In this document: positions 15,784 through 54,947 of the stretch, in pieces
How the letters are laid out: every line of letters starts with the position of its first letter
How positions within the stretch are numbered: position 1 is the first letter of the stretch
DNA from: an uncultured Thermoplasmatales archaeon
GTDB taxonomy: Archaea > Thermoplasmatota > Thermoplasmata > Thermoplasmatales > GCA-001856825
Length of the DNA: 60,401 nt
Direction: 5' to 3'
Assembly: GCA_964389625.1 (NCBI GenBank)
Contig: CAYMEF010000003.1
Location: forward strand, 1-60,401
The notes under the pieces: generated by a model
What the model saw: only the letters and a program-made list of their open reading frames with translations
Databases searched by the model: none
What the model was told of the DNA's origin: nothing
Program-made: the position numbers and the translations under genes

Positions 15784-15809
15784 CCCCAAACCATTCTGTC
15801 TTTTGAAAA

Positions 15810-15830: not shown

Positions 15831-15887
15831 AAATTGAACACGCTACAGACCGATGCGTTTTGCGTGGATGGAGATGCTAGCCCTGGC

Positions 15888-30759: not shown

Positions 30760-30819
30760 GAATAGACTATTGGAGATACTGTATATTTAATTTCCTAACC
30801 TTTTCACAGTTTATACGGT

Positions 30820-31179
30820 GGAAATGCTGATGAAATGCTCTCTTCCATTTCAGGGAAGTCCGTTCCGTTCAATTCGTCCAGCTAATCGTAGAACTTGGAT
30901 GTGGAAGTGCTTTCAGCGCAGACGATTTCGAGCAAGTCCGTGTTACTCAACAACTCCTCCGTCCCGTTTATCGATGATCTATATTTCCATGTGCCTCTCA
31001 ACTGCATTGATCCTGACGGATGAGGAGCTTATTCTCCTCACGGGCTTTCCCTCAACTTCCTTACCTATGTACTTTATGACCTTCTGCCTCGTTTTACCGT
31101 TTTCCCACACATGTTTCACCTCTGCAAGGTGTGTACCTGATGGTTTCTTCGACTTCCTTATGAATGATGGTATGTACAT
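30820..31179 (-). pseudogene. IS1634-family transposase N-terminal relic
   Basis: SFIRKSKKPSGTHLAEVKHVWENGKTRQKVIKYIGKEVEGKPVRR resembles IS1634 N-termini. After a break it continues TEELLSNTDLLEIV...STSKFYD*LDEL with a stop; no DDE domain. Confidence 0.7.
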
Positions 31180-31367
31180 TCATACATAAAGTGCTGGTAA
31201 CCTTACCACTCTAAATCGGTGGGCCCAACGGAATTCAGAGAGATTGTGAATAAAATAGGGGAAAAAATTAGGAAATTTGCCGACGGATATGTATCCTTGA
31301 CGCACATTTACCAACGCGTGCTCGGAAGGGAATACAATCTTTTATATCACCTTAAAATTCTGCCTAC

Positions 31368-33379: not shown

Positions 33380-34269
33380 TCCGCCTCAGAAACTATGGGG
33401 TTAAAAGGGGTGAATTTACCATAGACATTCCGGAGCTTAACTTAGTTGGAAGGAGGAACTTCATCATCGGGAAGAACGGTTCTGGAAAGACAACAATTCT
33501 GCAGTCTCTGGCGGGTCTGATAGAGAGCTCCGGGGTCTTTGAAGTAAATGGTGTCGACCTGTCGGAATTGCCTCCGGAGCGAAGAAGGGTGGGATACTTG
33601 CCTCAGGATCTGCTGCTATTTGGTAACATGACAGTTGATAACAACCTGAAATCGTCGATAAAGTACGGTAGGGGGAAAACGAGCATCTACGCGGAACTAG
33701 TTGCAAGGATGGATCTAACCAAGCTCCTGAAGAAGAGAACTGGCGACATCTCATTCGGGCAGGCACAGAGGGTAGCGATAGCGAGGGCCATAATATCCAA
33801 CCCCGCGGTACTCTTAATGGACGAGCCCTTTTCCTTTCAGGACGAGATATCAAGGCTTGGGCTCATAAGTCTTATCGATGAATTGTCTACAAAATACGAC
33901 TTCGATTATCTATATGCGACTCACAACTCCAGGGACCTCGAAACCGGTTTTTCCAGTCTGGTCTCGATAGATGGAGGACGAGTGATCGAGGCAGTCGAAT
34001 CTGTATCTATGATCCAACACTACAGAACCCTATCACTGCTCGACTATAGGAACCTCGTCTCCATCGATGGCCACTACTACGTGATAAACTGGGGTGCAAT
34101 GGAGTTCAGCGATACCGAGGGAAGCGAGTACGATATCGTGGGAATAGAGCCAAACAAGTATCTGAGGTTCAAGATAGGAGATAACTACCACTTTTCTACC
34201 CTGGCAGATTCGCCCACTGGGAGGTTTGTTAGAGTGAACACAGAGAAGGCCAGGGAGATCGTCTTTTAG
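33376..34269 (+). CDS. wtpC: Tungstate/molybdate ABC ATPase
   Basis: GKNGSGKTT, LPPERRRVGYLPQ, LLMDEPF, THN. Start at ATG 33376 (ATGA overlap with the permease stop). Confidence 0.88.
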   Translation: MIRLRNYGVKRGEFTIDIPELNLVGRRNFIIGKNGSGKTTILQSLAGLIESSGVFEVNGVDLSELPPERRRVGYLPQDLLLFGNMTVDNNLKSSIKYGRGKTSIYAELVARMDLTKLLKKRTGDISFGQAQRVAIARAIISNPAVLLMDEPFSFQDEISRLGLISLIDELSTKYDFDYLYATHNSRDLETGFSSLVSIDGGRVIEAVESVSMIQHYRTLSLLDYRNLVSIDGHYYVINWGAMEFSDTEGSEYDIVGIEPNKYLRFKIGDNYHFSTLADSPTGRFVRVNTEKAREIVF

Positions 34270-34302
34270 CAAACGTTTTAGGATTGCATTCAATTTTTGT
34301 GC

Positions 34303-35496
34303 ATGGAGCTGAGATCGTTCATCGACCTCGATGAAGCAATAAGTATGGGGGCGAAATACAGACCAAAATTGAAGAGCAAGAAAGTTCCCGCCCTTGAAGC
34401 GGTTGGTAAATTTTCTTCCAGCGATGTCGAGTCGCCCTCGGACTTTCCACCACACGATCGGAGTGCGATGGACGGCTACGCCCTCAGTTCCTCCGAAACT
34501 ATCTCGTCGAGCAGGACCAATCCTTCCCACTTTAGTGTTATAGGAAGGTTCTATCCTTCATCCAGAGTGCTCCCGTCTATCAGGAAGGGAGAGGCAGCTA
34601 GTGTAACGACTGGGTCTAAGATTCCACGAGGGGCAGATTCTGTAGCGATGTTGGAAGAAACAAACGAAGACGAGAATGGTGTGAGCGTGTACGCACCAGT
34701 AAGGAAGTTCCAGAACGTTAGTAGGACGGGCGAAGATCTGAAGAAGGGATACCGCATCCTGAAGCGTGGTGCCTCAATAAGTCCGCCCCACGTTTCTGCC
34801 CTCCTGGAGTGCGGGATGAAGAGGGTAGGAGTAATATCACTCTCAATAGGGGTGATATCCACTGGAGACGAACTCGTCGAGGGGTTGATTAGAAACTCAA
34901 CTCAACCAATGTTGATGGCCTACTTCCAAAGAAAGGGATTTGAAACAGTTGGGCATGAACCAGTGAGAGATCGGGAATCTGAGATAGAGACTGCCCTCGC
35001 TAGGATCCCAGAGGACATAATCATAGCCACAGGGGGAACGGGTCCTGGAGAGAGCGACCTACTGCCTTCCGTGATCCAAGGGAATGGGGGGATCGTGTTC
35101 AGGGGCCTCAAGATAAGACCGGGAAGAACTACTTCTTTTGGCGTGTTCAGGGGCAAACCCGTCTTCATGGTATCGGGTCTCCCAGTTGCCGCTCTAATCG
35201 CGTCGGAGAACTTCATACTCAGAGTGATATCCAAATGGTTCGGATTGGTGTTAGGGGAGAAGGAGTACAGGGAGGGGATTCTTGGGAGGAGCGTTGTGAA
35301 CACTCTTGGCTTCAGGAGCTTCGTCAGAGTCAAGGTTCAAAATGAAGCAAGTGGGACAGTGGTCTATCCGTCTAGGGTTACTGGGTCAGGGGTCATTTAC
35401 TCAATGATAGACGCCGACGGAATCCTCGTAATCGACGAAAATTCTGAAGGGATACAGGAGGGGGAAAGAGTGACATACGAAGTGATTAGGTGGTGA
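34303..35496 (+). CDS. moeA: Molybdopterin molybdotransferase MoeA
   Basis: PPHDRSAMDGYA, TG..IP.GADSV, STGDEL, TGGTG.G..D, IRPG, GLP. Confidence 0.93.
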   Translation: MELRSFIDLDEAISMGAKYRPKLKSKKVPALEAVGKFSSSDVESPSDFPPHDRSAMDGYALSSSETISSSRTNPSHFSVIGRFYPSSRVLPSIRKGEAASVTTGSKIPRGADSVAMLEETNEDENGVSVYAPVRKFQNVSRTGEDLKKGYRILKRGASISPPHVSALLECGMKRVGVISLSIGVISTGDELVEGLIRNSTQPMLMAYFQRKGFETVGHEPVRDRESEIETALARIPEDIIIATGGTGPGESDLLPSVIQGNGGIVFRGLKIRPGRTTSFGVFRGKPVFMVSGLPVAALIASENFILRVISKWFGLVLGEKEYREGILGRSVVNTLGFRSFVRVKVQNEASGTVVYPSRVTGSGVIYSMIDADGILVIDENSEGIQEGERVTYEVIRW

Positions 35497-35497
35497 G

Positions 35498-37393
35498 ATG
35501 GTAAAGGTATTCCACTCTCTGAAGACTGCGGATGAAGCAAGACAACTACTCTCTATAAGTCTAGGTGCTAGAATAACCGACGGTCTAGTGACCATCTCCG
35601 ATGCTGCAGGTTACGTATCTTCTGAAGATATTTTTTCTGCAAATGACGTTCCGCCTTTCGATAGGTCCGAGGTCGACGGTTATGCACTGAGCTACAGATC
35701 AATAGGCGGTGCAGATGAGGACAACCCGGTCGAGCTTAAGGTCGCCCGGGAGATAGAGATCGGGAAGAGGCCGGACATTGAAGTAAAGGAGGGAGAAGCA
35801 GCCTACATATCCACGGGATCGATGATACCCAGAGGGGCCGATTCAGTGGTAATGGTTGAGTATACGTCGAGAAGCGGTGAAAAGGTCAGCATTTTCAGAT
35901 CAGTGAGTCCGGGTGAAAATATTGCTCATGCGGGCTCAGATTTTTTTGTCAGCGAATATCTTGCAAGAAGAGGAAACATGATAACTCCCGAGGGAGTTGC
36001 ACTTCTCGCTTCTTCTGGTATCTCCAGAGTGAAAGTGAAGAACAAAATTAGGGTCGGGATCGTTTCAATAGGCAACGAACTTACTATCCCGGGGAAACGC
36101 CTTAAGCTGGGTAAAATCTTTGACAGCAATTCGTACTATTTCAAGTCGACACTCGAGAGGACTGGACTCACTCAGTGCGAGCTCCTAGGAACGTTGCCAG
36201 ACGAAAGGGAAGAGATAGAGGAGTTTGTCAGAGATAGTACCAGTAGATACGATCTGCTTGTATCTTCTGGCTCAACCTCTGCAGGTTTCCACGACATTCT
36301 CTACAGGGTAATCGAAGACCTTGGTGGGGAAATGCTTTTCCACGGTCTATCTATCAAACCCGGCAAGCCCACTTTTGCAGCCACCTTCGAAAAATGTGTA
36401 TTTTTGGGTATGCCTGGTTTCCCACTCTCCGCAGGAGCCGTACTGAGGTACATAGTTGTGCCGGCATTAAAGTCAGCATATGGGCAGCAGGACGATGCAT
36501 TGGAATACGTCTCACTGCCTTTTCGGATTAATGCTGAAAGGGGGAAAGACCACATCTTGCCAGCGATAATTGGTAGAAGTGGAAGAGCCTTTCCGATATT
36601 CGGGGAGTCGGGTTCCATCAGCCGACTTGCGTATGCGGACGGGTTCATATTGCTCGAACACTCAAGGAACTACTACGAAAGGGACGAGCCCGTTCCGTTC
36701 TTTCCACTGGAGAAGGGAAAGCGAGAGATCCTCTTCATAGGCTCAAACGATCCCATGATGGAGCGAATACTGTTCGAATCTGTCAAGTTCCCAACGATCA
36801 TCAATGCGGGTTCCTGGGGGGGATTCGAGGCGGCGAAGATCGGCGAGGCAGACGTTTCAGGTGTTCACCTGCTCAAGAATGGGGAGTACAATAAGTTCTT
36901 GCTGAAGGAAAGCGGAGGGGGGAATCTGGTTTTGGTTAGGGGCTTCTCAAGGGCGCAGGGGCTTGTGTCAAGAACTGGCATACATTCGTTCCATCAGATC
37001 AGAGATAAGGATCTCTTGTTCGTTAACAGGAACAGGGGCTCAGGAACTCGTGATCTCATTGAGATCGAGATTGAAAAGGAGCTCGGCCCAAATTTCGATA
37101 GAGATAGAATCAGAGGGTATCGCTGGGAGGCAAAGAGCCATGCGGCGGTCGCAAATGCGGTGAAGCAGGAACGAGGGGACGCGGGGGTCTCGATAGAATT
37201 TTATGCGAAGAGGTTGAATCTTAAGTTTCACAAGATAAGGGATGAAAACTACGATCTCCTCATGCAGAGAAGCTTCTACGAATCGGAAGTGGGTGGACTT
37301 CTAGTAAAACAACTAAGAGGTTCCAGGAAGTACTCGAAGGAATTTCCGGGATATAGCATTCCTAGTAATGTTGGCGATTTAATCCAATCGTGA
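35498..37393 (+). CDS. moeA: MoeA fused to a C-terminal PBP/LysR-type substrate-binding domain
   Basis: PPFDRSEVDGYA, SGSTSAG, IKPGKP, GMPGFP; C-terminal IGSND, GSWGG, GVHLL, NRNRGSGTR, ENYD. Confidence 0.92.
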   Translation: MVKVFHSLKTADEARQLLSISLGARITDGLVTISDAAGYVSSEDIFSANDVPPFDRSEVDGYALSYRSIGGADEDNPVELKVAREIEIGKRPDIEVKEGEAAYISTGSMIPRGADSVVMVEYTSRSGEKVSIFRSVSPGENIAHAGSDFFVSEYLARRGNMITPEGVALLASSGISRVKVKNKIRVGIVSIGNELTIPGKRLKLGKIFDSNSYYFKSTLERTGLTQCELLGTLPDEREEIEEFVRDSTSRYDLLVSSGSTSAGFHDILYRVIEDLGGEMLFHGLSIKPGKPTFAATFEKCVFLGMPGFPLSAGAVLRYIVVPALKSAYGQQDDALEYVSLPFRINAERGKDHILPAIIGRSGRAFPIFGESGSISRLAYADGFILLEHSRNYYERDEPVPFFPLEKGKREILFIGSNDPMMERILFESVKFPTIINAGSWGGFEAAKIGEADVSGVHLLKNGEYNKFLLKESGGGNLVLVRGFSRAQGLVSRTGIHSFHQIRDKDLLFVNRNRGSGTRDLIEIEIEKELGPNFDRDRIRGYRWEAKSHAAVANAVKQERGDAGVSIEFYAKRLNLKFHKIRDENYDLLMQRSFYESEVGGLLVKQLRGSRKYSKEFPGYSIPSNVGDLIQS

Positions 37394-37455
37394 AGCGTTG
37401 AAATTACATTCTCTCGACTAGAAAAAGTGATAAACTCAGAGAGGTTCTCCATCAA

Positions 37456-38295
37456 ATGTTCGAGAACATTGATGGCAGACTGGACATGAGCCTGTTCATG
37501 TCTACCTCTTTGAAAAACATCGACAGCTCCTTCTTTTCAGGAACAGAATCGGTACCAATGAGTTTGCACCTTCACAAGGGAGAAACTGCGATCAACTTCT
37601 TCATAGAAAGAGGGTCCAAATATAGCACTGAACTGATGAAGTACTACAGCCACATCGTAATAGGGGACTACATAATGGTAACTAAGAAGGTTGAACTACC
37701 TGTCGTAAGAGTACTCTACGAGAACATCTCTTCTATAGGGACGATGGTTTTTGGAGGTCTCTACGCAAAGGGCGAAGACCTCATGATCGATTACAGGTTT
37801 CATAATTCTGACAGATCCAAGGTCGCTGAAATCGTGAAACTCCTGGTCTCTTTGAACACGGAATTCAAGATCGGAGGAATGGGAAAATCGAAAGGACTCA
37901 GGGACAAGCTCTCCGAGATCGCATCAAGGTTGCCCCTGACTGCAGTCAGGTTCGGATACAGGGACGGCGGTTCTGAGAACCAAATACTGGAATGGAGGGG
38001 AGCATCGGACCCGTACGGAGCAGTCTCTTTTGGCGAAGATGGGAAAGGCAAGATCGCAAAATTGGACATATCCAAATCGGTTATCGCTCCATTCCTTCGA
38101 TCGATACTGAAGGACCAGATTCAACCGGCCGGCTATTTCGAGGAGCATATCAAGGGTAGGGTGCACGCTCTTTCTATACTTCCATCATTTCTGGTGAAAC
38201 CGTTCCTTCTCCGAATGTTTGATAAGGCGGAGTCATCGGGTGGTATCGAGATCGAGAGCATTGAACCATTTGAAGAAGTCAGAGAAAGTCTGTAA
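37456..38295 (+). CDS. Hypothetical soluble protein, probable paralog of 8307..9245
   Basis: 279 aa ATG ORF with YRFHNS motif; similar length and pattern to 8307..9245. Confidence 0.7.
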   Translation: MFENIDGRLDMSLFMSTSLKNIDSSFFSGTESVPMSLHLHKGETAINFFIERGSKYSTELMKYYSHIVIGDYIMVTKKVELPVVRVLYENISSIGTMVFGGLYAKGEDLMIDYRFHNSDRSKVAEIVKLLVSLNTEFKIGGMGKSKGLRDKLSEIASRLPLTAVRFGYRDGGSENQILEWRGASDPYGAVSFGEDGKGKIAKLDISKSVIAPFLRSILKDQIQPAGYFEEHIKGRVHALSILPSFLVKPFLLRMFDKAESSGGIEIESIEPFEEVRESL

Positions 38296-38332
38296 TTCGG
38301 CTATACTGCAAATTCTGTCATCTCTATTTGTC

Positions 38333-38815
38333 TCATTCCTTGCGAATTTCGTGGTCGACGTGTCCCATTATGGAAGTTATAGTCGAAAAGGCCAAGGCAG
38401 TGGCATCGGGTGAACCCGGAACACAATATATCTGCTTTCCATCCTTGATGAAGAGGGATGCATTCGATAGGTAAGCAAATCTTTCGTGGGATTCTGATCT
38501 GAAAAGTTCACCGAACCCGACCATCTCCTTTTCAGAAATGCTCCTGATGCTCTCGATCGTCACATCTCTCCTGCTCGGCCCTGTGCCTCCAACGAACACA
38601 AAAATGTCATATTTTGCATGGGAATAGAATGAATCCAGTATCTGTTCTTCATCGTCACTGCATACAACCCTGTCAACCTCATGCGAATCATTCAGGAACA
38701 GGAGCCTCAGGTTGTTACCTGAAGTGTCTGTTTTCTCCGTTCTCGATGTTGAGACAGTGACGATCAGTATCTTGAATTTTTTATTGGATTCTTCTCTATG
38801 AACCATTCTTATCAA
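38333..38815 (-). CDS. moaB: Molybdopterin adenylyltransferase MoaB/MogA
   Basis: TVSTSR..KTDTSG, GGTG.S.RDVT.E, GFGELFR, PGSP. Confidence 0.9.
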   Translation of the reverse strand: MIRMVHREESNKKFKILIVTVSTSRTEKTDTSGNNLRLLFLNDSHEVDRVVCSDDEEQILDSFYSHAKYDIFVFVGGTGPSRRDVTIESIRSISEKEMVGFGELFRSESHERFAYLSNASLFIKDGKQIYCVPGSPDATALAFSTITSIMGHVDHEIRKE

Positions 38816-38925
38816 TCCCCTTCCCTTATCTCCCTTATGGCATCAACGGTCGTTGACTTCAGGGAGATGAAACCCTTTGCAGCTGCTTCCCTATTCACAA
38901 TTTCTCTATCACTTACATCTATCAT
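38812..38925 (-). pseudogene. Internally deleted moaC relic (37 codons)
   Basis: MIDVSDREIVNREAAAKGFISLKSTTVDAIREIREGD* aligns with the N-terminus of intact MoaC at 39965..40426 (MIDIGDKQIVKREAVASGYIKLKRTTLKAIGE); its stop overlaps the moaB TTG. Confidence 0.8.
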
Positions 38926-38954
38926 ACAAGAGGATCAACTAAAGATGAGGACGT

Positions 38955-39773
38955 TTATCTAATATTTTTGCCAATCAACGTACTTTTCCTGAATGCATTC
39001 ACTGCCTCCATGTTTTTCAAAACCTCCGCTACGACAGAATCGACAATTTCTCTTGCAGACCCTTCCTTCTCGGGGACTTTCATCACGAACTCTTCGCTCG
39101 TCTCTCCGCTTACCCTGTTGCATATCTTACCCCGAATCTCTATACCCAATGAATGCAGGTCCTTCGTTATCTCCGCAGACTGAATCAGTGAGAGTTCGTC
39201 GGTTGTCGTAACGATGAAGAATTTTGCCTTGAGGATCTCGTTCCACACCCTCTGTGCCAAAGACCTCCACTGCTCCAGAAGATCGATAATCTTGTCAGTG
39301 TGCAGAGCGTCCCTGAGCTTCAGGTAAATCTTCACGTCAGTGCCCAGGTGTTCATAGAATTCTTTCTGAAGAAGGATGAGATGCATGGTGGAAGAGGATG
39401 CAGCGGTATCCCAGACGACATAGTCATATTTCTTCGACAGCTCGTACTCGACTATGTTTGAAATTAGAAATTCGTCAGCGACTCCGGGACTGTTTGCCAC
39501 GTGATTGATAATCCAGTCATCGACTTCGAATAGGTTACCGAGGACAGTCTTTACCTCTTGTCCGTATCTTTCCTTCCATCTTTCAGACACTTCACTTTCC
39601 TTGAGTTCGACCACGTCCAGATTCTTATGCCCCTCTGGAAACAGGTGCTTGAGGGAGGGCATAAAGTCGCTCGAGACTAGTAGTATCTTTGCCTCTCTAG
39701 ATAGGCTTAGGGCAACGGCTGAAGAAATTGTCGTCTTTCCCACCCCTCCCTTCCCGACAAACGCCAAGATCAT
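38955..39773 (-). CDS. ArsA/Get3-like SIMIBI ATPase (single domain, deviant switches)
   Basis: GKGGVGKTT deviant Walker A, SSDFMPSL, PG..DE, WDTA, NR. Start at ATG 39773 (MILAFVGKGG). Confidence 0.82.
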   Translation of the reverse strand: MILAFVGKGGVGKTTISSAVALSLSREAKILLVSSDFMPSLKHLFPEGHKNLDVVELKESEVSERWKERYGQEVKTVLGNLFEVDDWIINHVANSPGVADEFLISNIVEYELSKKYDYVVWDTAASSSTMHLILLQKEFYEHLGTDVKIYLKLRDALHTDKIIDLLEQWRSLAQRVWNEILKAKFFIVTTTDELSLIQSAEITKDLHSLGIEIRGKICNRVSGETSEEFVMKVPEKEGSAREIVDSVVAEVLKNMEAVNAFRKSTLIGKNIR

Positions 39774-39964
39774 TTCACGTGACAATTGTTTCCTATTATA
39801 GAACTGTTGGGAGTTTGAGGGAAGCTCCGCTCGTAGGTGAAACTTCACTCTATGATCCAGGATCCTTACAGTTTTGTGAAGATGCAGTGGTCTCTATTGG
39901 AATAGAAGGTGTTGACGATCTTCTCCCAGATCGTCCTTGCAAACTGTTGTGTGGACCACGAAAT

Positions 39965-40426
39965 CTATCTCCCCTTTTCTTTTCTGATGACTCTTACTTC
40001 GCTTATCTCTGTGGAAGTATATTGTCCCTTTTCATCCTTCTCTAGGTACTTTACCATATCCCATACTGTCAGGAGCATCGAATTAACACAAGAAAGTGCT
40101 TCCATTTCCACCCCCGTCTTGTATCTGGCGGTGACCCTGCAGGTGACCCTGATACCTTCCGTTTCTATCTCTATACTCGGAAGGACGGATTCGAGCGGTA
40201 AAGGATGGCAGTGAGGTATTAGCTGCGGAGTCATCTTTGCTCCTAGAACTCCAGCCACTCTTGAGACCTCTTTAACGTCTCCCTTCTTTACGCTCCCTTC
40301 ACCTATGGCCTTCAGTGTGGTTCGTTTGAGCTTTATGTACCCTGAAGCAACGGCTTCCCTCTTTACAATTTGTTTGTCACCGATGTCGATCATTGGCGCG
40401 TTTCGAATGAAAATTGGGTCGTCCAT
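39965..40426 (-). CDS. moaC: Cyclic pyranopterin monophosphate synthase MoaC
   Basis: KKGDV, LIPHCHP, KTGVEMEAL, WDMVK. Confidence 0.95.
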   Translation of the reverse strand: MDDPIFIRNAPMIDIGDKQIVKREAVASGYIKLKRTTLKAIGEGSVKKGDVKEVSRVAGVLGAKMTPQLIPHCHPLPLESVLPSIEIETEGIRVTCRVTARYKTGVEMEALSCVNSMLLTVWDMVKYLEKDEKGQYTSTEISEVRVIRKEKGR

Positions 40427-40767: not shown

Positions 40768-42597
40768 TTAATATATATCGGCGTCCAAACTATCGTGCGA
40801 TGTCTCATATTTTTGTATTGCCTTGTAGATATCGTTCCTCGTTACTATGCCAATAACCTTTGAAGTTTCCTTTGAAACTATTGGAATCCTGCCGACCCTG
40901 TTGACGGACATCATCCTCAGGACATCGAGAAGTGAATCGTCTGGACGGCCGATAACTACGTTCTTTGTCATGACGTTCTTGACCAGTACAGTACCCCGTT
41001 CTTCAGGTTTGACTGAATCTATGTCCGATTTAACAACAACGCCAACCAGCCGCCATCCATCAAGGACGGGAATCCCTTTGATCTTGGATGTGTTCATAAT
41101 CTCGGCAACCTCGGCTACGCTTAAGGAGGCCTGAACAACGATTGGGTACGGGTTCATTATTTCTTTGACAGATACCTTTTCAAGGTTGTGGACGTTGTAC
41201 TCTCCGCGGTGTGCGGGAGACTCCGCCCTGTCTCTCACCTGGTTCTTGTATATTGAGTACTTGGGTCCCACTATGTAATATGCAATAATTACAGCAACCA
41301 TTGAAGGGATCATAAGAGTGAGCGTTCCGGTCATTTCGCTCACCATCAGAATGACTGCAATGGGTACCCTACCGGCGCCGGCAAATGTGGCCATCATCCC
41401 CACTATAACGAACGGAGCTGGAGTCGGAATGATCGTCTTGTTGACCATATCGATGATGACCCACATGAACGCCCCAAGGAAGGCCCCAATCACTAATGAA
41501 GGTGCAAACACGCCTCCACTGCCTCCGGACCCAACGGTGAAGGAAGTCGCTATTATCTTTGCAAAGACCAGAATTATTAGAGTAGCTAGCAACGGTAATA
41601 CAACGTACTCGGACCTGATGAGTGAGAGCTTTCCGTCGAGCAGGTACTGAACGTAACCATAGCCCAAACCCGTCACCTGTGGAAAAAATATGGCTATTAT
41701 ACCAGCTATTCCGCCGCCGATCATGGGCCTGAAGTACTTCTTGACCCTCAGCTTATCGAACAGGGTTCGGACCCTGTAGAAGGAAAAGCTGTACAGCTTA
41801 CCTGTGAGGCCCGCCGCCACTCCAAGGATGGCGTAAAGTATAAGATTGAATGGATGCAAGAAGTTGTAGGTGATTCCGGATCCAAAAATGGGGGAGAAAT
41901 TTGTGAAAGAGGCGAAGATCACGTATCCGATGGGTGACGCAATGAACCCGGGCACTATGGTCTCAAATTCCATGTCACCTCCACTGTACAGAATTTCAGC
42001 GCTGAGTATGGCCCCCCCGAACGGAGACTTGAAGATCGCTCCGATTCCCGCACCGATTCCAACCGCGACTGCAGTCCTTCTGTCCTTTATGGATAACCCA
42101 AGGAAACTGCCAATGAAAGAACCAAAACCCGCAGAGATCTGAGCGGTTGGACCTTCTCTTCCAGCGCTCCCACCAGAGCCTATAGTTATCGCGGAAGTTA
42201 TCATCTTGATGAATGGGACTCTCTTCCTAACGTATCCATTCTTGTTGTGAAATGCATCAATTGCAGCATCGGTACCGTGACCCTCTGCCTCTGGCGCAAA
42301 CTTGTAGGTGATAAGTCCAACTACAAGACCACCAAGCATGATAGATAGAGGGATCAGGAAGTAATGGGGGTTGATCGTTGCCGGTGCAGGAATCTCTCCC
42401 GCGGGAGACGGGGCATAGAATCCCGTGATCCTACCAAGGATGTTGTTGGTAGCAAAGTTCAGCAAATAATAAAATGCAGTGGCTCCAAGTCCGGATACGG
42501 TCCCGATAAGGATTCCAACGATCCCCCACTTCGCAAGGTAAGACGAGTTGATGTACTTACTAACGGAACCTCGTATATTCTTGTCCCCAAGAGCCAT
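40768..42597 (-). CDS. ClC chloride channel/antiporter with tandem CBS domains
   Basis: GHGTD, GSAGREGP, GGSGGVFAP; C-terminal CBS pair. Confidence 0.93.
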   Translation of the reverse strand: MALGDKNIRGSVSKYINSSYLAKWGIVGILIGTVSGLGATAFYYLLNFATNNILGRITGFYAPSPAGEIPAPATINPHYFLIPLSIMLGGLVVGLITYKFAPEAEGHGTDAAIDAFHNKNGYVRKRVPFIKMITSAITIGSGGSAGREGPTAQISAGFGSFIGSFLGLSIKDRRTAVAVGIGAGIGAIFKSPFGGAILSAEILYSGGDMEFETIVPGFIASPIGYVIFASFTNFSPIFGSGITYNFLHPFNLILYAILGVAAGLTGKLYSFSFYRVRTLFDKLRVKKYFRPMIGGGIAGIIAIFFPQVTGLGYGYVQYLLDGKLSLIRSEYVVLPLLATLIILVFAKIIATSFTVGSGGSGGVFAPSLVIGAFLGAFMWVIIDMVNKTIIPTPAPFVIVGMMATFAGAGRVPIAVILMVSEMTGTLTLMIPSMVAVIIAYYIVGPKYSIYKNQVRDRAESPAHRGEYNVHNLEKVSVKEIMNPYPIVVQASLSVAEVAEIMNTSKIKGIPVLDGWRLVGVVVKSDIDSVKPEERGTVLVKNVMTKNVVIGRPDDSLLDVLRMMSVNRVGRIPIVSKETSKVIGIVTRNDIYKAIQKYETSHDSLDADIY

Positions 42598-42772
42598 TTA
42601 GCAACCGTTTCTAGATAAACTGAGACTTAATAACCGTTCCTCAGGGATAGCCTCTGCCCGTCCTAAGTCTAAGAGATTTAATGCATCTCGAAGGAGTTAA
42701 CAATGATAAAAGAAAGGGCTAGATTCCCAGTCAACGGTAATTTAATTATCGTATGTGGTAATCCCTCCGAGA

Positions 42773-44746
42773 ATGGGAGAGGTCATAGGTAGGCAAAATA
42801 GATTTATAAGAAAGGTTGTCTCTTTATCGGCCGCTGGAGTTTTCCTCGACGGATATGATCTTTTCATCATCTCAGTAGTGCTCATATATATAGATTCCCA
42901 GAACTGGGTCACCACCGGAACCGTTGCGGGTGCCATCCAGACAGGCCTCATCCAATCGTCTGCGCTTATAGGCATGTTTGTGGGTGCACTCCTCCTTGGT
43001 AGATTCGCAGACAGGGTCGGAAGGAGAACGCTCTACATGATCGACCTAGTTTTCTTCGTCTTTTTTGGATTCCTTACTGCTCTTGCCACGAATGTCAATC
43101 AACTCATAATATTCAGGTTCCTTCTCGGCATAGGCATAGGAGCAGATTATCCCATATCTTCAACTTATGTAGCGGAGTTCTCTCCGAAACAGAAGCGCGG
43201 TAAGCTCATCACTACCACATTCATGTTCTGGGGAATAGGCTCGATCGTTGCGGCCGTGATCGGGTTCACGTTCGGAAGATTCGAGACCGTGGACCTCTTT
43301 GGAAGTCAAATCGCATCCTGGAGGATTATGCTGGCGTCCGGGGTCGTTCCAGCCATCGCCGTCCTTATACTGAGACACACCATGCCAGAGTCACCGAGGT
43401 GGCTGCTGGCAAATAACCAACCAGAGAAAGCGCGGGCAGTAATTGAGAAAATAAAAGAGAAGTACGACCTCGACTACAGCAAGGATCTCTCCGCTGTCGA
43501 ACCGGAGCGGAGAGGAAAGATGTCAGAGTTGTTCAGCAGGGCGTACAGGAAGAGGACCATGTTCTCCTGGATCCCGTGGTTCTTCATGGACTATGGAGTG
43601 TACGGGGTGGGAATCTCTATACCCCTGATTCTGTACTCCGTCGGGTTCAAAGGCACTAGCATTGTTGCGAAGGTCAATGCGATCCTTGGTACCATATTCA
43701 TAGACGTGTTTATCCTGTTGGGATTCATAGTCGCAATATTCATCGTAGAGAAAGTGGGAAGGTTGAAGCTTCAGGGACTGGGTTTCGTTGGGATGGCTGT
43801 CGGAGCCCTTGTCTTTGCATTCGGTTTCAACTATGGAGTTTACCTGATTCTAGGCACACTGATCTTCTACGAATTCTTCGAGAATATGGGACCGAACGTC
43901 ACGACGTGGATAGTCCCAACCGAGATATTCCCAACTAGGCTGAGGGCAACCGCACAGGGCACTTCCTCTGCATTCAGCAGAATAGGGGCGGTGATAGGAA
44001 CGTTCACATTTCCGGTGCTGGTCAAATTCTATGGTTGGGAGGTTACTTTCATTGTAGTCTTCATCTTCATGGTTGGTGGCGCACTGTCGACCTGGATATT
44101 TGGAACGGAAGTGTCCAGCCTATCTCTCGAAGAATCCTCAATGGTGTTCCTGGAATTCTCCAACTACCTCAAGAGACTTGGAGAGAAAGTGAAGGAGGCA
44201 TCCGAGGAGCTGTTTGCTATGGTCTCGCGGTACGACAGACTAGAAGAGAGGGCAGAGTCCATCAAGAACCTCGAACACGAGGCAGATGAGATAGTGCACC
44301 AGATCTACAACAGGGTGAACCTTATGCCGAAGCCTTTAGAGTCTGTTGACGTGGGGAATCTAGCGACCAAGTTTGACGACATCCTCGACTTCATGGACGG
44401 GGTCGCAAAGAGGCTTGTCCTCTTCAAGGTTCCCAAGACAAAGGAGATGGACGAATTCGCCAGGGTGATACTCGCATCCGTTACCGAAGTCACCGAGGCT
44501 CTCAAGATGTTCGGAAACTTCACCGAAGGGGACTCTGCAGACATAAGAAATCAGATAATAAAGATCAACGACCTTGAGGACAAGGCGGACGACATTCTCG
44601 AGAGTTCGTACGGTTCTCTCTTCTCGACCCAGGACCCCATCATGATAATCAAACTCAAGGAGATCTATGAGATAATGGAGACGGTGACAGACAAGTGTGA
44701 AGACGTATCGGATATATTCAACGACCTCGTGATAAAGTACAGCTGA
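42773..44746 (+). CDS. MFS transporter (sugar porter/phosphate:H+ symporter-like) fused to a DUF47/PhoU-like domain
   Basis: FLDGYD, ADRVGRR, RFLLGIGIGADYP, PESPRW, GPNVTT, EIFPTRLR; then from ~44150 LEHEADEI...DDILD...LEDKADD...KEIYE.ME..TDKCEDV, all in one uninterrupted frame. Confidence 0.85.
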   Translation: MGEVIGRQNRFIRKVVSLSAAGVFLDGYDLFIISVVLIYIDSQNWVTTGTVAGAIQTGLIQSSALIGMFVGALLLGRFADRVGRRTLYMIDLVFFVFFGFLTALATNVNQLIIFRFLLGIGIGADYPISSTYVAEFSPKQKRGKLITTTFMFWGIGSIVAAVIGFTFGRFETVDLFGSQIASWRIMLASGVVPAIAVLILRHTMPESPRWLLANNQPEKARAVIEKIKEKYDLDYSKDLSAVEPERRGKMSELFSRAYRKRTMFSWIPWFFMDYGVYGVGISIPLILYSVGFKGTSIVAKVNAILGTIFIDVFILLGFIVAIFIVEKVGRLKLQGLGFVGMAVGALVFAFGFNYGVYLILGTLIFYEFFENMGPNVTTWIVPTEIFPTRLRATAQGTSSAFSRIGAVIGTFTFPVLVKFYGWEVTFIVVFIFMVGGALSTWIFGTEVSSLSLEESSMVFLEFSNYLKRLGEKVKEASEELFAMVSRYDRLEERAESIKNLEHEADEIVHQIYNRVNLMPKPLESVDVGNLATKFDDILDFMDGVAKRLVLFKVPKTKEMDEFARVILASVTEVTEALKMFGNFTEGDSADIRNQIIKINDLEDKADDILESSYGSLFSTQDPIMIIKLKEIYEIMETVTDKCEDVSDIFNDLVIKYS

Positions 44747-44782
44747 TTGTCAAGTTTATCTATAAAGAATCCATCCATACCT

Positions 44783-45010
44783 ATGGTGGAACTTAGGATC
44801 ACCGTTACGCTCAAGAAATCAGTTGAGGACTCCGAGGGAAGTTCCGTCCTCAAGGCACTGAAGCTGCTTGGGTACGACAACGTTAAGGATGTCAGGGCAG
44901 GAAAGGTTTACTTCATCACCCTCACCAGCGGAAGCAAGAAAGTTGGTAGAGAGTTCTGTGAGAAACTCTTGGCGAACCCTGTGATCAACGAGTGTGCAGT
45001 TGATGATTAG
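44783..45010 (+). CDS. purS: FGAM synthetase subunit PurS
   Basis: V.LK..V.D.EG..V..AL..LGY..V.DVR.GK, CEKLLANPVI. Confidence 0.92.
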   Translation: MVELRITVTLKKSVEDSEGSSVLKALKLLGYDNVKDVRAGKVYFITLTSGSKKVGREFCEKLLANPVINECAVDD

Positions 45011-47267
45011 AGAGGAAGCAACGACCGAGGTATCAATACTAGCCAAGTCGAGAGATGACCTCCTCGAAGTTTCTAGAAAGATGCACCTAGGTCTGTCCTC
45101 GGACGAGATGAGGAGGGTGCAAGAGCATTTTGAGAATGAAGAAAGGGAACCAACAGACGTAGAACTACAGGCGATTGCCCAGGCCTGGAGCGAGCACTGC
45201 AGCTACAAGAGCTCAAAGGTTCACCTCAAGAAATTCATTCTTGGGATAGGCAAGGACAAGATCGTGGCAGAAGGTGATGCTGGGCTAGTTTCACTGGACA
45301 AAGACACTGCAATAGCGTTCAAGATTGAAAGCCACAATCATCCCTCGGCCATTGAGCCTTACGGCGGTGCCGCAACTGGGGTCGGAGGTATTCTGCGTGA
45401 CATCCTAAGCATGGGTGCGCAACCGATTGCGGTCACGGACGTCCTGTACTTCGGCACCAAGAAAGTCAAGGGATTCCCGTCTCCGAAGTTTATAGAAGGA
45501 GGGGTAATCGCGGGCATAAGAGACTACGGTAACCGAGTCGGAATACCAACCGTCTCTGGTGGAATAGTTTATTCTGACTATTTTTCACCCAACGTTCTGG
45601 TGAACGTGGGCTGCGTAGGAGTTGTAAACAAGAAGAAGATTATGTCTTCTGCGGTCAAGGAAGCAGGAATCAAACTGATTATCGCTGGCGGAAAGACGGG
45701 GAGGGACGGCATACATGGAGTCAACATGGCCTCCGCCATCATGGAGAGCGGAGAGGAAGACATCACCACCGTTCAGCTCGGGAGTCCCATCACAAAGGAA
45801 CCTCTAATCCACGCCGTTCTTGAGGCAAGTGATAGGGGTCTTCTATATGCCCTTAAGGATCTCGGTGGGGGAGGGCTGAGTAGCGTCGTTGGGGAGATGC
45901 TCAATGCGGGAGGAATGGGTGGGAGAATAAACCTCGAGAGAGTCCCGCTCAAGGAGAAGAGCATGAAGCCATGGGAAATATGGATCTCCGAGAGTCAGGA
46001 GAGGATGCTTCTAGCAGTCAGGGAGGAGAACGTTGAAGAAGTGCTTGGGATAATGGAAGACTGGGACATCACCTCCTCCGTCATAGGGGAGAGCGAAGAG
46101 GGCAAGAGGCTCAGGATATTCTACAAAGGCACAAAGGTACTCGATCTGGTCACGGATTTCATGACTTCACCCAAGCTGTACGAGAGACTAGCAGTGGTAA
46201 AGCAGAGGCAGGTTGTCCAGGTTCTACCTAAATACCCTTCCGACTTCAAGAAGATTCTTTTGGCGATGCTCTCGGATAGAAACGTGCGAACCAGAGAGTA
46301 TGCAGTCAGGCAATACGACCACACCGTTAGGGGAAGCACAGTCGTTGGTCCATTCACCGGCATAATAGGAAGGGAGGGCCCGTCCGATGCGTCGATTATA
46401 AGGCCAGACTGGAGCAAGGAAGTTGGGGTAGCTATCTCTCACGGATCGAACCCCTTCTATTCTGCAATAGACCCCTACCTGGGAGGAAGGGCGGCGATAG
46501 ATGAGACAGTTAGAAATCTCATCGCAGTGGGGGCTGAGCCTCTCGGTTTTTCGGATTGCCTCAATTCGGGGAACCCGGAGAGACCAGAAGTGATGGGAGA
46601 ATTTATCGAAATGGTCAGGGGGCTCCATGACTCTGCTTCGGGACTGGAATTACCGTTCGTATCCGGAAATGTATCTTTCTACAACGAGGCTGGCAGGAGA
46701 AGGATCCCGAGCTTCCCAACCATTCTGGGTGTGGGAAGGGTAGAAAGAATAAGGCACGCCGTTACACCCGACCTAAAGAGGGAAGACAACGGGATCTATC
46801 TGGTAGGTCTGCCAACTTCTGACCTCGGTGGTTCGCTGTATCACAGGAGGATGGGTATCGAGGGAGGAAGGGTTCCATACTCCGATCCAAGAACTCTCAA
46901 GAGAAGGGGATGGAATCTCCTCAAATCAATCAAGAGTGGAATTGTACAATCGGCTCATGACGTCTCGGATGGAGGCATTGCAACTGCAGTTTCTGAAATG
47001 ACGATCGGCTCGGACATCGGCCTGTCTCTCGATATAGCAGTACTTGGACTTCGCTCGGATTTCGTTCTATTTTCGGAACCGCAGTCAAGCTGGATGGTTG
47101 AAGTCGATCGGAAGGGTGAAAAGGAATTCCTGGAAACGATGTCCGATGACGCGATATTCCTCGGGAGGACAGGTAGTGATGATTTGTCCATAGCTCGGGG
47201 AGAGGAGAGTGTTCTGGAAGTGGACCTGAACTCGATACTAGGGAGATGGAAGAGGGGATATTCGTGA
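44994..47267 (+). CDS. purL: FGAM synthetase subunit PurL
   Basis: WSEHCSYK, KIESHNHPSAIEPYGGAATGVGG, DLGGGG, ESQERM, SGNVS, HDVSDGG. Confidence 0.96.
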   Translation: MQLMIREEATTEVSILAKSRDDLLEVSRKMHLGLSSDEMRRVQEHFENEEREPTDVELQAIAQAWSEHCSYKSSKVHLKKFILGIGKDKIVAEGDAGLVSLDKDTAIAFKIESHNHPSAIEPYGGAATGVGGILRDILSMGAQPIAVTDVLYFGTKKVKGFPSPKFIEGGVIAGIRDYGNRVGIPTVSGGIVYSDYFSPNVLVNVGCVGVVNKKKIMSSAVKEAGIKLIIAGGKTGRDGIHGVNMASAIMESGEEDITTVQLGSPITKEPLIHAVLEASDRGLLYALKDLGGGGLSSVVGEMLNAGGMGGRINLERVPLKEKSMKPWEIWISESQERMLLAVREENVEEVLGIMEDWDITSSVIGESEEGKRLRIFYKGTKVLDLVTDFMTSPKLYERLAVVKQRQVVQVLPKYPSDFKKILLAMLSDRNVRTREYAVRQYDHTVRGSTVVGPFTGIIGREGPSDASIIRPDWSKEVGVAISHGSNPFYSAIDPYLGGRAAIDETVRNLIAVGAEPLGFSDCLNSGNPERPEVMGEFIEMVRGLHDSASGLELPFVSGNVSFYNEAGRRRIPSFPTILGVGRVERIRHAVTPDLKREDNGIYLVGLPTSDLGGSLYHRRMGIEGGRVPYSDPRTLKRRGWNLLKSIKSGIVQSAHDVSDGGIATAVSEMTIGSDIGLSLDIAVLGLRSDFVLFSEPQSSWMVEVDRKGEKEFLETMSDDAIFLGRTGSDDLSIARGEESVLEVDLNSILGRWKRGYS

Positions 47268-48055
47268 CGAGAGATATAAGAGTGGCTCTGTTGATAATGG
47301 AAGGCACTAACAACGAGGAAGAAGCCTACCTTTCGTTCAAGAATTCGGATACGCTTCCGGAGATGGTACACATCAAGAAGCTTGAAAACGGAAAGAAGAA
47401 GCTGAGCGATTACGACCTCATCTTCTTCCCTGGGGGATTCTCCGCTGGCGATTATGTAAGGGCAGGAGCCGTTATGGCCGCCAGGATAAAGTCGAAGCTC
47501 CTCAAAGACCTGGAAGAATTTGTGGAGAGCGGCAGACCGGTCATGGGTTCTTGCAACGGATTCCAGACACTGGCCGAATTGGGCATGCTCCCGAACGTCG
47601 GGGGAAAATACGCACTGGAAGCAGCGCTCGCCCCAAACGTATCGAACAGGTTCGAGGCTAGGACCATCTATCTCAAGGTTAGAAAGGGGAACTGCCTCTT
47701 CCTGAAAAGGTTCAAGGATGGGGAGTTGATAAAACTGCCGATAGCACACTCCGAGGGAAGATTCGTCACCAGGGACAAGGGCATACTCGGGAAGATAGTC
47801 GGGGATGGGATGAACGTATTATCGTACGTCAACGAGGTGGGCGAGGAGGCCGGATACCCATGGAACCCCAACGGTTCAGAGCAGAATATAGCCGGTATAT
47901 GCAACAGGGCGGGGAACGTGCTCGGAATGATGCCTCATCCAGAGAGAGTCTTCTACAGGTTCACTGAATCGGACTGGACCAGGAGTGAAGAGAGGGAGGG
48001 GATGGGGAATCCTTTCTTTAAGAGTGCAGTAGATTTCCTTAGAGAAAAATTTTAA
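47264..48055 (+). CDS. purQ: FGAM synthetase glutaminase subunit PurQ
   Basis: GTNNE, PGGFSAGDY, GSCNGFQ, AHSEG, NPNGS, MMPHPER; GTG start overlapping the purL stop. Confidence 0.95.
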   Translation: MTRDIRVALLIMEGTNNEEEAYLSFKNSDTLPEMVHIKKLENGKKKLSDYDLIFFPGGFSAGDYVRAGAVMAARIKSKLLKDLEEFVESGRPVMGSCNGFQTLAELGMLPNVGGKYALEAALAPNVSNRFEARTIYLKVRKGNCLFLKRFKDGELIKLPIAHSEGRFVTRDKGILGKIVGDGMNVLSYVNEVGEEAGYPWNPNGSEQNIAGICNRAGNVLGMMPHPERVFYRFTESDWTRSEEREGMGNPFFKSAVDFLREKF

Positions 48056-53558: not shown

Positions 53559-54947
53559 ATGAGAGTTGCAGTCATCGGGCTCGATTGCGCAGCCCCGGAC
53601 ATAATATTTAACAAGCTGAGGGATCGCCTACCAAACCTTTCTAGAATGACGGCGGATGGAATCTCGGGCAAGCTGAGGAGCTGCGATCCACCCATAACAA
53701 TACCTGCCTGGATGGTGATGTCGACAGGCCGATCCCCTGGAGAACTGGGCCTGTACGGATTCAGGTCGAGAGTTCCAAATTCGTACAATCAGATAAAGAT
53801 CCCTTCCTCTAAAGACATCAAGTTTGACACTGTCTGGGACATCTTAGGGAAGAGGAACAAGAGGAGCATCATAATCGCCGTTCCTCCCTCCTACCCGCCG
53901 AAACCAATCCCTGGTCTCATGGTCACAGACTTTCTCACCCCAGACAAGAACAAGGAATTCACATACCCGCCCGGATTGAAGAACGACATCCTACGCGACT
54001 TCCCGGACTACCAGTTCGATGTTAAGTTCCGGAAGCCGGAGAAGAAGCAGATAATAGACGAGATATACAAGATGACGGACACGCGGTTCAGAATGGCGGA
54101 GAAGATGCTGGACGAAAAGCCCTGGGACTTCTTCTTCATGGTTGAGATAGGGATCGATAGGATTCATCACGCGTTCTGGAGGTACATTGACGAGGGGAGC
54201 CATCTATACGAGAACGATGAAGAGATGCGTGAGAAGTTCATCTCTTATTTCGAGATGGTAGACTCGCATATTGGCAAGATGTTAGAGAGATTCGATGATG
54301 AGACCGTTGTCTTGGTGGTATCGGACCACGGTGCCAAGGCGATGAAAGGTGCATTCGCGATCAACCAGTGGCTAATCAGGGAAGGGTACCTGAAACTTAA
54401 GGGAGGAATTCCCAAACAGGGTTCGTCGCTCGATGATCTTGACATCGACTGGACACAATCAAAGGCATGGGCGTGGGGAGGCTACTACGCTAGGGTATTC
54501 CTAAACATCAGGGGGAGGGAGCCGGAGGGCACGATCGAACCAAAGGATGTCAGGAAAGAACTCGATTCCCTAAAAAGGAAGATCCTCTCGATCAAGGGAC
54601 CGAATGGAGAAGAATGGAAAACGAAGGTGTTCGAGCCAGAGGAAGTCTACCAGGTGGTAAACGGGGATAGGTCAGATCTCTTTGTGTACCTTGACGATCT
54701 CAACTGGAGGACTGCTGGGACTCTGGGGTACGAAACCGATTATCTCTTGGAGAACGACACTGGACCTGACGATGCGGTGCATGACTACGACGGAATCTAC
54801 ATACTGTACAGGAAGAACAGGAAGATTGGGAAGGTAATAGACTCAAGCATTTTCAGGATTGCACCGACCATCCTGGAACTTTACAGGGTCAGGAAGACCT
54901 ATGGAATACAGGGCAAACCACTGGAGGGAGTCGATTATGTCAAATGA
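53559..54947 (+). CDS. Alkaline-phosphatase-superfamily (nucleotide pyrophosphatase/phosphodiesterase-like) protein
   Basis: IGLDCA, PPITIPAW..MSTG, DRIHH.FW, VSDHG, DDAVH. Confidence 0.88.
   Translation: MRVAVIGLDCAAPDIIFNKLRDRLPNLSRMTADGISGKLRSCDPPITIPAWMVMSTGRSPGELGLYGFRSRVPNSYNQIKIPSSKDIKFDTVWDILGKRNKRSIIIAVPPSYPPKPIPGLMVTDFLTPDKNKEFTYPPGLKNDILRDFPDYQFDVKFRKPEKKQIIDEIYKMTDTRFRMAEKMLDEKPWDFFFMVEIGIDRIHHAFWRYIDEGSHLYENDEEMREKFISYFEMVDSHIGKMLERFDDETVVLVVSDHGAKAMKGAFAINQWLIREGYLKLKGGIPKQGSSLDDLDIDWTQSKAWAWGGYYARVFLNIRGREPEGTIEPKDVRKELDSLKRKILSIKGPNGEEWKTKVFEPEEVYQVVNGDRSDLFVYLDDLNWRTAGTLGYETDYLLENDTGPDDAVHDYDGIYILYRKNRKIGKVIDSSIFRIAPTILELYRVRKTYGIQGKPLEGVDYVK

Follow-up and report, generated by a model that had tools for sequence, protein, structure and literature searches.

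The window analysed here, a 60,401-nucleotide stretch of DNA from an uncultured Thermoplasmatales archaeon (contig CAYMEF010000003.1, positions 1 to 60,401), contains a gene at 42773..44746 on the + strand that encodes a fusion of a complete carrier of the major facilitator superfamily (MFS) with a PitR-type DUF47 domain. Our analyses confirmed the identity of both halves and established that the fusion is real, widespread in archaea and under selection. Given this, along with the similarity of the carrier to Pho84/PiPT-type symporters, we are inclined to regard the protein as a carrier of phosphate (or a phosphate-like oxyanion) and protons with a built-in accessory regulator, a reading that we consider, by analogy with known carrier-regulator pairs, to be somewhat probable.

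A single open frame encodes both domains

The gene, its putative promoter and its three parts are as follows.
42773..44746, + strand: fused carrier-DUF47 gene, from ATG to stop, 657 amino acids (aa); assigned from the open frame, the Pfam matches to Sugar_tr and PhoU_div, and the N-termini of homologues
42740..42749, + strand: AT-rich TATA-like box, atttaattat, read from the sequence, 24-33 nt 5' of the ATG
42773..44116, + strand: carrier domain, residues 1-448, PHS-like (Pho84/PiPT), with 12 transmembrane helices (TM) and a bundle of intracellular helices linking TM6 to TM7; Sugar_tr match and helix map of the AF2 model
44117..44143, + strand: short linker (residues 449-457), which follows immediately on the conserved E..LSLEE.S stretch closing TM12; pLDDT below 50 in the model
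44144..44743, + strand: PitR-type DUF47/PhoU_div domain, residues 458-657, cytoplasmic; PF01865 match, match to 3l39 and model helices

The stop-free frame on the + strand reaches through 44746 and offers two starts, GTG at 42755 or ATG at 42773; the ATG agrees with the N-termini of the homologues and also fits the position of the TATA-like box, which may represent an archaeal promoter giving rise to a short-leader or leaderless mRNA. The first-pass annotation, made from the letters of the sequence, had described one stop-free frame joining a complete MFS carrier to a DUF47 domain, and this description was borne out: 42773-44746 runs exactly from ATG to stop, the Pfam scan finds both domains, and all motifs named in that annotation occur in the translation (as LDGYDLF, GIGADYP, PESPRW, GPNVTT, EIFPTRLR, EHEADEIV, FDDILDF and LEDKADDIL). 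In the Pfam scan, Sugar_tr covers residues 20-459 (E 3.7e-69), accompanied by MFS_1 (E 2.3e-35) and a sub-threshold match to MFS_3, while PhoU_div (DUF47, PF01865) covers residues 461-652 (E 4e-19; 69.3 bits vs a cut-off of 24.4). The AF2 model (mean pLDDT 84.6, pTM 0.69) shows 12 long helices, with short ones on the intracellular side linking TM6 to TM7, followed by the linker and six further helices. Around the junction, all 22 fused homologues compared share E446, L452 and S456. Hence, one gene encodes an entire MFS carrier joined to a PitR-type DUF47 domain.

A genuine fusion, widely distributed among archaea

In a search of 5.8 billion proteins, both PF00083 and PF01865 were present in 118 of the 120 best-listed clusters (117 besides that of the window protein; 35-85% identity), and the fused clusters stem from many independent assemblies (NCBI, JGI, ENA and Logan). 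Scanning one genome per species yielded 80 loci; among these, a hidden Markov model (HMM) of the fused domain picked out 43 archaeal loci with a single-frame fusion, from Thermoplasmata/Thermoplasmatales (including I-plasma and Aciduliprofundum), Nitrososphaerales/Thaumarchaeota and Thermoprotei. The 22 fused homologues, at 35-75% identity, have invariant residues in both halves.

The junction (nt ~44138), which the first-pass annotation had suggested checking with sequence data, is crossed without an indel by contigs of four public runs from two studies. Three of these runs (X1-X3) are mine-drainage metagenomes, possibly the samples from which the window was assembled, and their contigs show no differences over 42600-44341 (X1, record 1), 42600-44313 (X2, record 9) and 42600-44263 (X3, record 17). 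The fourth (X4, record 24), a hot-spring metagenome from a separate study and thus independent, spans 42927-44529 as a 97.8% identical variant with 36 substitutions and no gaps. When positions 44219-44770 were examined, the exact-match contigs of X1-X3 were seen to stop at 44263-44341, and the 3' part of the DUF47 region was covered in these runs by higher-depth contigs differing by ~9%, which suggests that these samples also hold a related strain at higher abundance.

An artefact of assembly or gene calling that joined two genes has, in our estimation, a negligible chance of explaining these data. The only appearance in its favour came from four short matches (P0121-P0124), which at first sight resemble separate DUF47 genes; however, the four are fragments or annotated partials: the records of P0121 and P0122 label them partial, and P0123 starts inside TM12, which marks it as a fragment of a fused gene. 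Moreover, the single frame is shared by the bridging contigs, by 118 of the 120 best-listed clusters and by the 43 archaeal loci. The first-pass annotation had also allowed for relatives having two genes. No such split form was found: the fused-domain HMM detected no DUF47 open reading frame (ORF) within 8 kb at 38 loci of unfused bacterial relatives, and the same HMM is able to detect distant stand-alone PitRs (E 1e-12 to 1e-19). Since contigs of four runs bridge the junction and nearly all best-listed clusters share the architecture, the fusion is not an assembly artefact.

The carrier half is closest to Pho84/PiPT-type symporters

Among NCBIfam families, the carrier half is best matched by TIGR00887, the phosphate:H+ symporter family (206.4 bits, below the equivalog cut-off of 610.3). 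The closest solved relatives are variants of PiPT, both by sequence (E 4e-46; ~25% identity) and by fold (Foldseek E ~5e-16, TMt 0.80-0.82). Hence, the earlier suggestion that the carrier is related to Pho84-type symporters was upheld, as the best family and the best solved match in sequence and fold all lie with the Pho84/PiPT-type Pi:H+ symporters.

The available part of PMC6761603 gives, after Pedersen et al. (2013), a proton path in PiPT formed by D45, D48, E108, R139 and D149, and a phosphate pocket formed by Y150, F174, Q177, W320, D324, Y328, N431 and K459. We mapped the window protein to PiPT via a HMMER alignment, in which the chain index equals the residue number + 2, and found 10 of the 13 residues of this list to be identical. 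The proton path is kept throughout (D26, D29, D91, R115 and D125, with D91 as a conservative replacement of E108), and all five positions are invariant in the 22 fused homologues. The pocket is identical at six of its eight positions (Y126, F150, W269, D273, Y277 and N375), the two others being R403, a conservative replacement of K459, and W153, which in place of Q177 is the one real difference. The ten identical residues, as well as D91, are invariant among the fused homologues.

Thus, the window protein shares with PiPT (Serendipita/Piriformospora indica), yeast Pho84 and plant PHT1 the 12-helix sugar-porter-like fold, the D-x-x-D, R and D-Y residues of the proton path, and the F, W-x3-D-x3-Y and N residues of the pocket. 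It differs from them in being archaeal, in having W for Q177 and R for K459, in scoring below the equivalog cut-off, and in carrying a C-terminal DUF47 domain, which none of the solved carriers possesses.

The DUF47 half is a PitR-type domain

The C-terminal half matches 3l39, a structure described as a 'putative PhoU-like phosphate regulatory protein' (E 1.8e-20; domain residues 8-202), and shares with it the acidic helix motifs and a C-terminal KYS. The model places its helices at residues 457-486, 490-517, 522-551, 557-581, 585-616 and 622-656, forming two three-helix repeats. The acidic motifs are E501-H-x-x-D505, D535-x-x-x-D539, E602-x-x-x-D606 and the group E636/D640/D644/D647; all of these named residues, together with H502, are invariant in the 22 homologues, and the acidic ones form two similar sets, one per repeat. 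A match to the PhoU family proper (PF01895) is weak (20.8 bits, below the cut-off of 23.5). The domain begins ~10 residues past the conserved E..LSLEE.S end of TM12, and because both ends of MFS carriers are cytoplasmic, it should face the cytoplasm as well. Among genuine stand-alone proteins, those nearest to it are DUF47 proteins of 208 aa with 40-45% identity, one of them named Nitrososphaerales. A complex prediction for the carrier (residues 1-455) with the DUF47 part (456-657) gave a score of 0.00 in both runs and is evidence neither way.

Known carrier-regulator systems and a possible mechanism

A 2026 survey of 926 bacterial genomes (PMC13170248, cited here from its available part), which was limited to bacteria and to single-domain PhoU_div proteins, distinguished three PhoU-like clades, each tied to one importer family: PhoU with PstSCAB, PitR (a single PhoU_div domain) with PitA, and NptA's PhoU domain, which is mostly fused. 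PitA was present in 97.8% of the PitR-bearing bacterial genomes, with the two genes adjacent save for one exception, and stand-alone PhoU-like proteins were reported to regulate two-component signalling. The main text of this survey does not contain the words 'archaea', 'MFS', 'fused' or 'fusion'. The first-pass annotation had stated that stand-alone DUF47 genes usually lie beside Pit transporters, which agrees with this survey and with the same pairing in our own survey of Thermoplasmata. In the literature searched (most subscription journals and all supplements were outside the search), we found no description of the fusion, and archaeal proteins that pair a PHS-type MFS carrier and a PitR-type domain are undescribed there.

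The stand-alone PitR/DUF47 proteins (S. aureus PitR; 3l39) are of the same family and size, carry the same acidic helix motifs and are presumed to regulate a phosphate importer; however, PitR is a separate protein of ~205-230 aa encoded beside pit (PF01384), a transporter of another family, whereas here the domain is covalently attached to an MFS carrier (PMC13170248). The closest conceptual precedent is the NptA-type Na+/phosphate cotransporter, which joins a secondary phosphate carrier and a PhoU-like regulator in one chain, although its families are different (Na_Pi_cotrans, PF02690, rather than MFS, and PhoU repeats, PF01895, rather than PhoU_div) and it has been described in bacteria (PMC13170248). 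Na_Pi_cotrans is absent from the Pfam matches of the fused protein. The SPX transporters (SPX-MFS/PHT5/VPT1 and Pho87/Pho90) likewise have a cytosolic phosphate-status domain fused to a carrier, but the SPX domain is N-terminal and reads inositol pyrophosphates. The likeness to SPX-MFS proteins that had been proposed at first holds as a functional analogy only, since the Pfam scan of the fused protein revealed no SPX domain and the two are evolutionarily unrelated. The PitR-Pit pairs acting in trans and the NptA-PhoU proteins are the closer precedents.

We propose that the carrier, being of the Pho84/PiPT type, may import phosphate, or a very similar tetrahedral oxyanion, together with protons, and that the DUF47 domain, like PhoU with Pst, PitR with Pit and PhoU with NptA, could act as the accessory regulator of its own carrier. 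The domain would read the cytosolic phosphate state (or the flux) via its conserved acidic helix motifs and, when phosphate is ample, would bias the carrier toward an inactive state via the TM12 end and linker or via the intracellular helices. Without such a brake, H+/Pi uptake would run on without limit under the large pH gradient of an acid habitat. The substrate, the direction of transport, the sensed signal and the action of the domain on its own carrier are what we infer here.

Phosphate regulation in archaea is poorly known. If our proposal is true, the importer-regulator rule of PMC13170248 (in its available part) would gain a fourth carrier family, the Pho84/PHT1 symporters, and would reach archaea. 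Moreover, with regulator and carrier in one polypeptide the partnership is fixed by the gene, which would make the fused protein a convenient system for studying how PhoU-like domains act on a transporter, a question still open even for E. coli PhoU. Should the domain have no effect, or the substrate not be phosphate, the finding would shrink to an unusual domain architecture.

Two states of the anion site

The two pocket positions that depart from PiPT correspond to the following codons.
43229..43231, + strand: codon of W153, which aligns with Q177 of PiPT; the Thermoplasmata sub-family has W here, and PiPT and the fused sub-family of TACK archaea have Q
43979..43981, + strand: codon of R403, at the position of PiPT K459 (Pho84 K492); from the PiPT alignment and the site table

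We tabulated 11 site positions in 201 rows (120 cluster representatives and 81 locus ORFs; the two sets overlap and the rows are not independent), which gave these patterns.
DDRDYWWDYNR: 92 fused, 1 short
DDRDYQWDYNK: 67 fused, 25 short
DDRDYWWDYGR: 14 unfused bacterial
DDRDYYWDYAR: 1 row
Truncated: 1 row

Throughout the table, Q153 is invariably found with K403, and W153 (Y in one sequence) invariably with R403. Apart from these two states, the tabulated positions are near-constant in the ~200 fused and unfused relatives, save for N375, in place of which 15 unfused sequences from bacteria have G or A. PiPT and Pho84 are of the Q/K type, which the TACK-archaeal fused sub-family keeps, and the window protein is of the W/R type. 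According to the available part of PMC6761603, AtPHT1;1 retains partial activity with the Q172A substitution and is inactive with K449A, and the Pho84 variants K492A/E/Q are active with lowered affinity. Since AtPHT1;1 Q172A and the Pho84 K492 mutants are active, the Q and K positions appear to tune rather than define phosphate transport, and we consider a re-tuned phosphate site to be more likely than a new substrate as the meaning of the W/R state. Furthermore, one fused homologue on a long branch (P0120, 630 aa) has a carrier half that looks like a canonical PHS (TIGR00887 320 bits; Q/K), so that near-canonical phosphate symporters, too, can bear the DUF47 domain. The Q/K and W/R states offer a natural experiment on the determinants of affinity and selectivity in PHS carriers, a family relevant to phosphate uptake by crops.

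Weighing the phosphate reading

Several of the observations brought together in this section weigh against a self-regulated phosphate carrier, and our confidence in that reading is lowered mostly by the W/R state of the site, by the presence of a canonical paralogue and by the fact that function is inferred. At the profile level the assignment of the carrier is weak, since TIGR00887 reaches only 206 of the 610 bits required and the next family, TIGR00895 (aromatic acid:H+ symporter), follows closely at 189.8 bits; the DUF47 half misses the cut-off of TIGR00153 (52.8 vs 104.3 bits). The W153/R403 state is common to no characterised Pi:H+ symporter, and the coupled change from Q to W and from K to R suggests a re-tuned site. 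In addition, the neighbours of the fused genes are mostly housekeeping genes.

The history of the two halves offers evidence on both sides: the place of the W/R fused clade near unfused bacterial carriers counts against the reading, and the single clan of fused DUF47 domains, the unrejected single clan of fused carriers and the matching sub-clades count for it. Quick IQ-TREE searches were run on sets de-replicated at 75-80% identity, with fragments dropped. In the DUF47 tree (79 sequences), all 39 fused domains formed one clan (support 81), adjoining the stand-alone groups of 208 aa and ~206 aa and far from the Pit-adjacent PitRs of Thermoplasmata. In the carrier tree (56 domains), the W/R fused clade (support 98) stood apart from the Q/K fused clade; this W/R clade, which is that of Thermoplasmata, grouped with unfused bacterial W/R carriers and then with bacterial Q/K carriers (supports 92-93). 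Forcing all fused carriers together cost 10.3 log-likelihood units, and the AU test did not reject this arrangement (p 0.154). The carrier and DUF47 trees show matching sub-clades, from which it follows that the halves have long been together. Possibly there was one old fusion followed by loss of the domain in bacterial recipients, or there were two separate fusions.

We also surveyed 201 Thermoplasmata genomes, drawn at a completeness of at least 80 and including, in addition, the window genome (1.51 Mb, 65.7% complete). PF01865 was present in 177 of the 201 genomes. The distribution counts rest on the matches listed, beyond which lie 78 further PF01865 and 18 further PF01384 matches. Among the 150 PF01865 matches listed, 26 were fused forms, with open frames of 658-812 aa, from families f1, f4, f9, f12 and f31, and stand-alone copies of ~225 aa adjoined strong Pit genes (e.g., in genome G019). 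In none of the 25 other Thermoplasmata genomes bearing the fusion did the matches listed include a strong Pit (E <=1e-60); 12 of these genomes had no listed PF01384 match and 13 had a weak, divergent one (E 1e-6 to 1e-36). This pattern is a hint in favour of the phosphate reading. The complementarity of Pit and fusion is partial, with a weak PHO4 match in 13 of 25 genomes, and suggestive only, because the 25 genomes come from four families and kin are not independent.

In the window genome, at its 65.7% completeness, we found no Pit (PF01384), no PstB above the cut-off and no second PF01865 match besides the fused gene. The only other PhoU-like match there was one to PF01895 (30.8 bits), in a 316-324-aa frame on contig 16 (locus L002, 361-1311, + strand). 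The same genome encodes two unfused relatives of the carrier.
Contig 25, 15427-16734, - strand: unfused PHS-type paralogue, 476-478 aa (locus L106, 1435-2865)
Contig 82, 1134-2384, + strand: unfused PHS-type paralogue, 440 aa (locus L105)
The contig-82 paralogue has a W..G..R pattern, as in relatives from Bacillota and Planctomycetota. The contig-25 paralogue possesses 13 of the 13 PiPT residues and scores 302.6 bits with TIGR00887 (next family 125), still missing the cut-off of 610.3. It could, judging from these residues, be the real phosphate importer of the cell, and the fused gene need not be the main one given such a canonical unfused paralogue in the same genome.

A rather unlikely alternative is that regulated transport by the fused protein serves a substrate different from orthophosphate, such as another oxyanion (arsenate, sulfate, molybdate or tungstate) or a small organophosphate, with DUF47 serving as a general cytosolic regulatory module. 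The coupled change sitting in the pocket, the thin profile margin (206 vs 190 bits) and the canonical paralogue would all suit such a substrate, as would the genes for tungsten/molybdenum uptake and cofactor synthesis that lie 2-14 kb upstream in the window and directly upstream of the fused gene at one relative's locus (L040). However, the protein agrees with PiPT at 10 of the 13 listed residues, among them the entire proton path and W-x3-D-x3-Y, R retains the positive charge of K, and, in the available part of PMC6761603, AtPHT1;1 Q172A is partly active and Pho84 K492A/E/Q are active with lower affinity. As regards molybdate and tungstate in particular, the cofactor genes are separated from the fused gene by other genes and are absent beside the W/R clade of 45% identity, and an ABC-type system with a binding protein is already contained in the cofactor locus of the window. 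Hence, a phosphate-carrying fused protein, possibly with a re-tuned site, remains the reading we prefer.

The sequence is carried by mine-drainage and hot-spring metagenomes, with no RNA set among the data sets listed as carrying it, and its relatives include I-plasma and Sulfobacillus, which we take to be acidophiles; this habitat counts in favour of the preferred reading. The origin in mine drainage is also in line with another possibility, in our opinion very unlikely, that the protein is an outward valve for phosphate or metal-phosphate, opened by DUF47 when cytosolic phosphate rises, e.g., after breakdown of polyphosphate. Export of metal-phosphate by Pho84-like carriers has been proposed for acidophiles in connection with copper tolerance, and four such genes of Metallosphaera sedula are induced by copper (PMC5328820, PMC5859850), but the available parts of these reports show transcription only and make no mention of a PhoU/DUF47 domain. 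Moreover, with an acid exterior the proton gradient would, by established bioenergetics, oppose H+-coupled export.

Gene neighbourhood and the purine genes

The genes next to the fused gene are as follows.
40768..42597, - strand: ClC chloride channel with two CBS domains, divergent neighbour (Voltage_CLC E 5.9e-90, CBS E 1.9e-24)
44747-45010, + strand: purS (Pfam PurS), directly downstream of the fused gene
44994-47267, + strand: putative purL, an ORF identified through the Pfam-checked syntenic purL of relative L040
47246-48055, + strand: purQ-type amidotransferase (Pfam GATase_5)

An intergenic region of 175 nt separates the ClC-CBS gene from the fused gene, and a ClC-CBS gene recurs upstream at locus L031. 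The purS-purL-purQ genes (44747..48055) may, from their arrangement, be co-transcribed with the fused gene. This gene order recurs in the close clade, where it was Pfam-checked in seven relatives (L024, L032, L033 for purS only, L037, L038 and L039, and L040 for purL and purQ) and seen by ORF size in the rest. In the clade of 45% identity, purF, or purE with guaA, lies upstream, and an IMPase-family gene and a NAD kinase gene lie downstream; in the TACK clade, a DUF84 NTPase gene lies upstream, joined at L081 by an adenosine deaminase gene. In three clades with different gene orders, then, purine genes lie beside the fused gene (L024-L054 in Thermoplasmata; L070, L081 and L093 in TACK). These are three post hoc observations, which may reflect a link between phosphate supply and nucleotide synthesis or chance synteny.

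The purine neighbours also bear on the idea that the protein is chiefly a sensor ('transceptor'), whose carrier half reports external or passing phosphate and whose DUF47 half relays the signal, perhaps to purine nucleotide synthesis. Besides the recurrence of purine genes in the three clades (purS-purL-purQ; purF or purE-guaA; DUF84 NTPase and adenosine deaminase), a canonical transporter paralogue in the same genome is compatible with such a role; Pho84 is known to signal besides transporting (available parts of PMC5159500 and PMC3824880), and stand-alone PhoU-like proteins regulate two-component signalling (PMC13170248, likewise in part). Nevertheless, we give the sensor little probability, as all residues of the proton path are kept, which would be needless for a pure sensor, no partner protein was identified, and each purine neighbourhood is one synteny block, so that the evidence amounts to three independent arrangements noticed post hoc. 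Taking the preferred reading, i.e., a phosphate carrier with its own regulator, to its furthest extent, one could imagine one ancient fusion as the fourth pairing of a carrier with a PhoU-like domain, re-tuned at its site in Thermoplasmata and working as a self-limiting valve or gauge that would match phosphate entry to purine synthesis in acid habitats, beside an unregulated canonical paralogue; we regard this combined picture as doubtful.

We found no conserved neighbourhood of phosphate genes; among the annotated contexts, only that of a thaumarchaeotal locus (L093) has a pit-pitR pair. There, at 7917-11576, a Pit gene in convergent orientation (PF01384, E 1.6e-90) comes after the fused gene, along with a stand-alone DUF47 gene, whose product scores 212 bits with the fused-domain HMM, compared with 44-67 for the PitRs of Thermoplasmata.

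Further upstream, a tungsten/molybdenum cofactor locus occupies 28903-40426 of the window.
28903-30759, - strand: aldehyde:ferredoxin oxidoreductase
31368-32591: SBP_bac_11 binding protein
33175-34269: ABC ATPase
34297-35496: MoeA
35498-37393: MoeA fused to a PBP_like domain
within 28903-40426: Ta1207-family protein
38333-38815, - strand: MoCF_biosynth protein
38955-39848, - strand: ArsA-like ATPase
39965-40426, - strand: MoaC

At L040, genes for MoaE, MoaA, ThiF, a MobA-like protein and a molybdopterin oxidoreductase lie directly upstream of the fused gene. One more gene of the window was recorded, ~9 kb downstream of the fused gene.
53559-54947, + strand: type I phosphodiesterase / nucleotide pyrophosphatase family protein (PF01663, E 1.2e-45)
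Judging from its family, this protein may be a phosphorus-scavenging enzyme.

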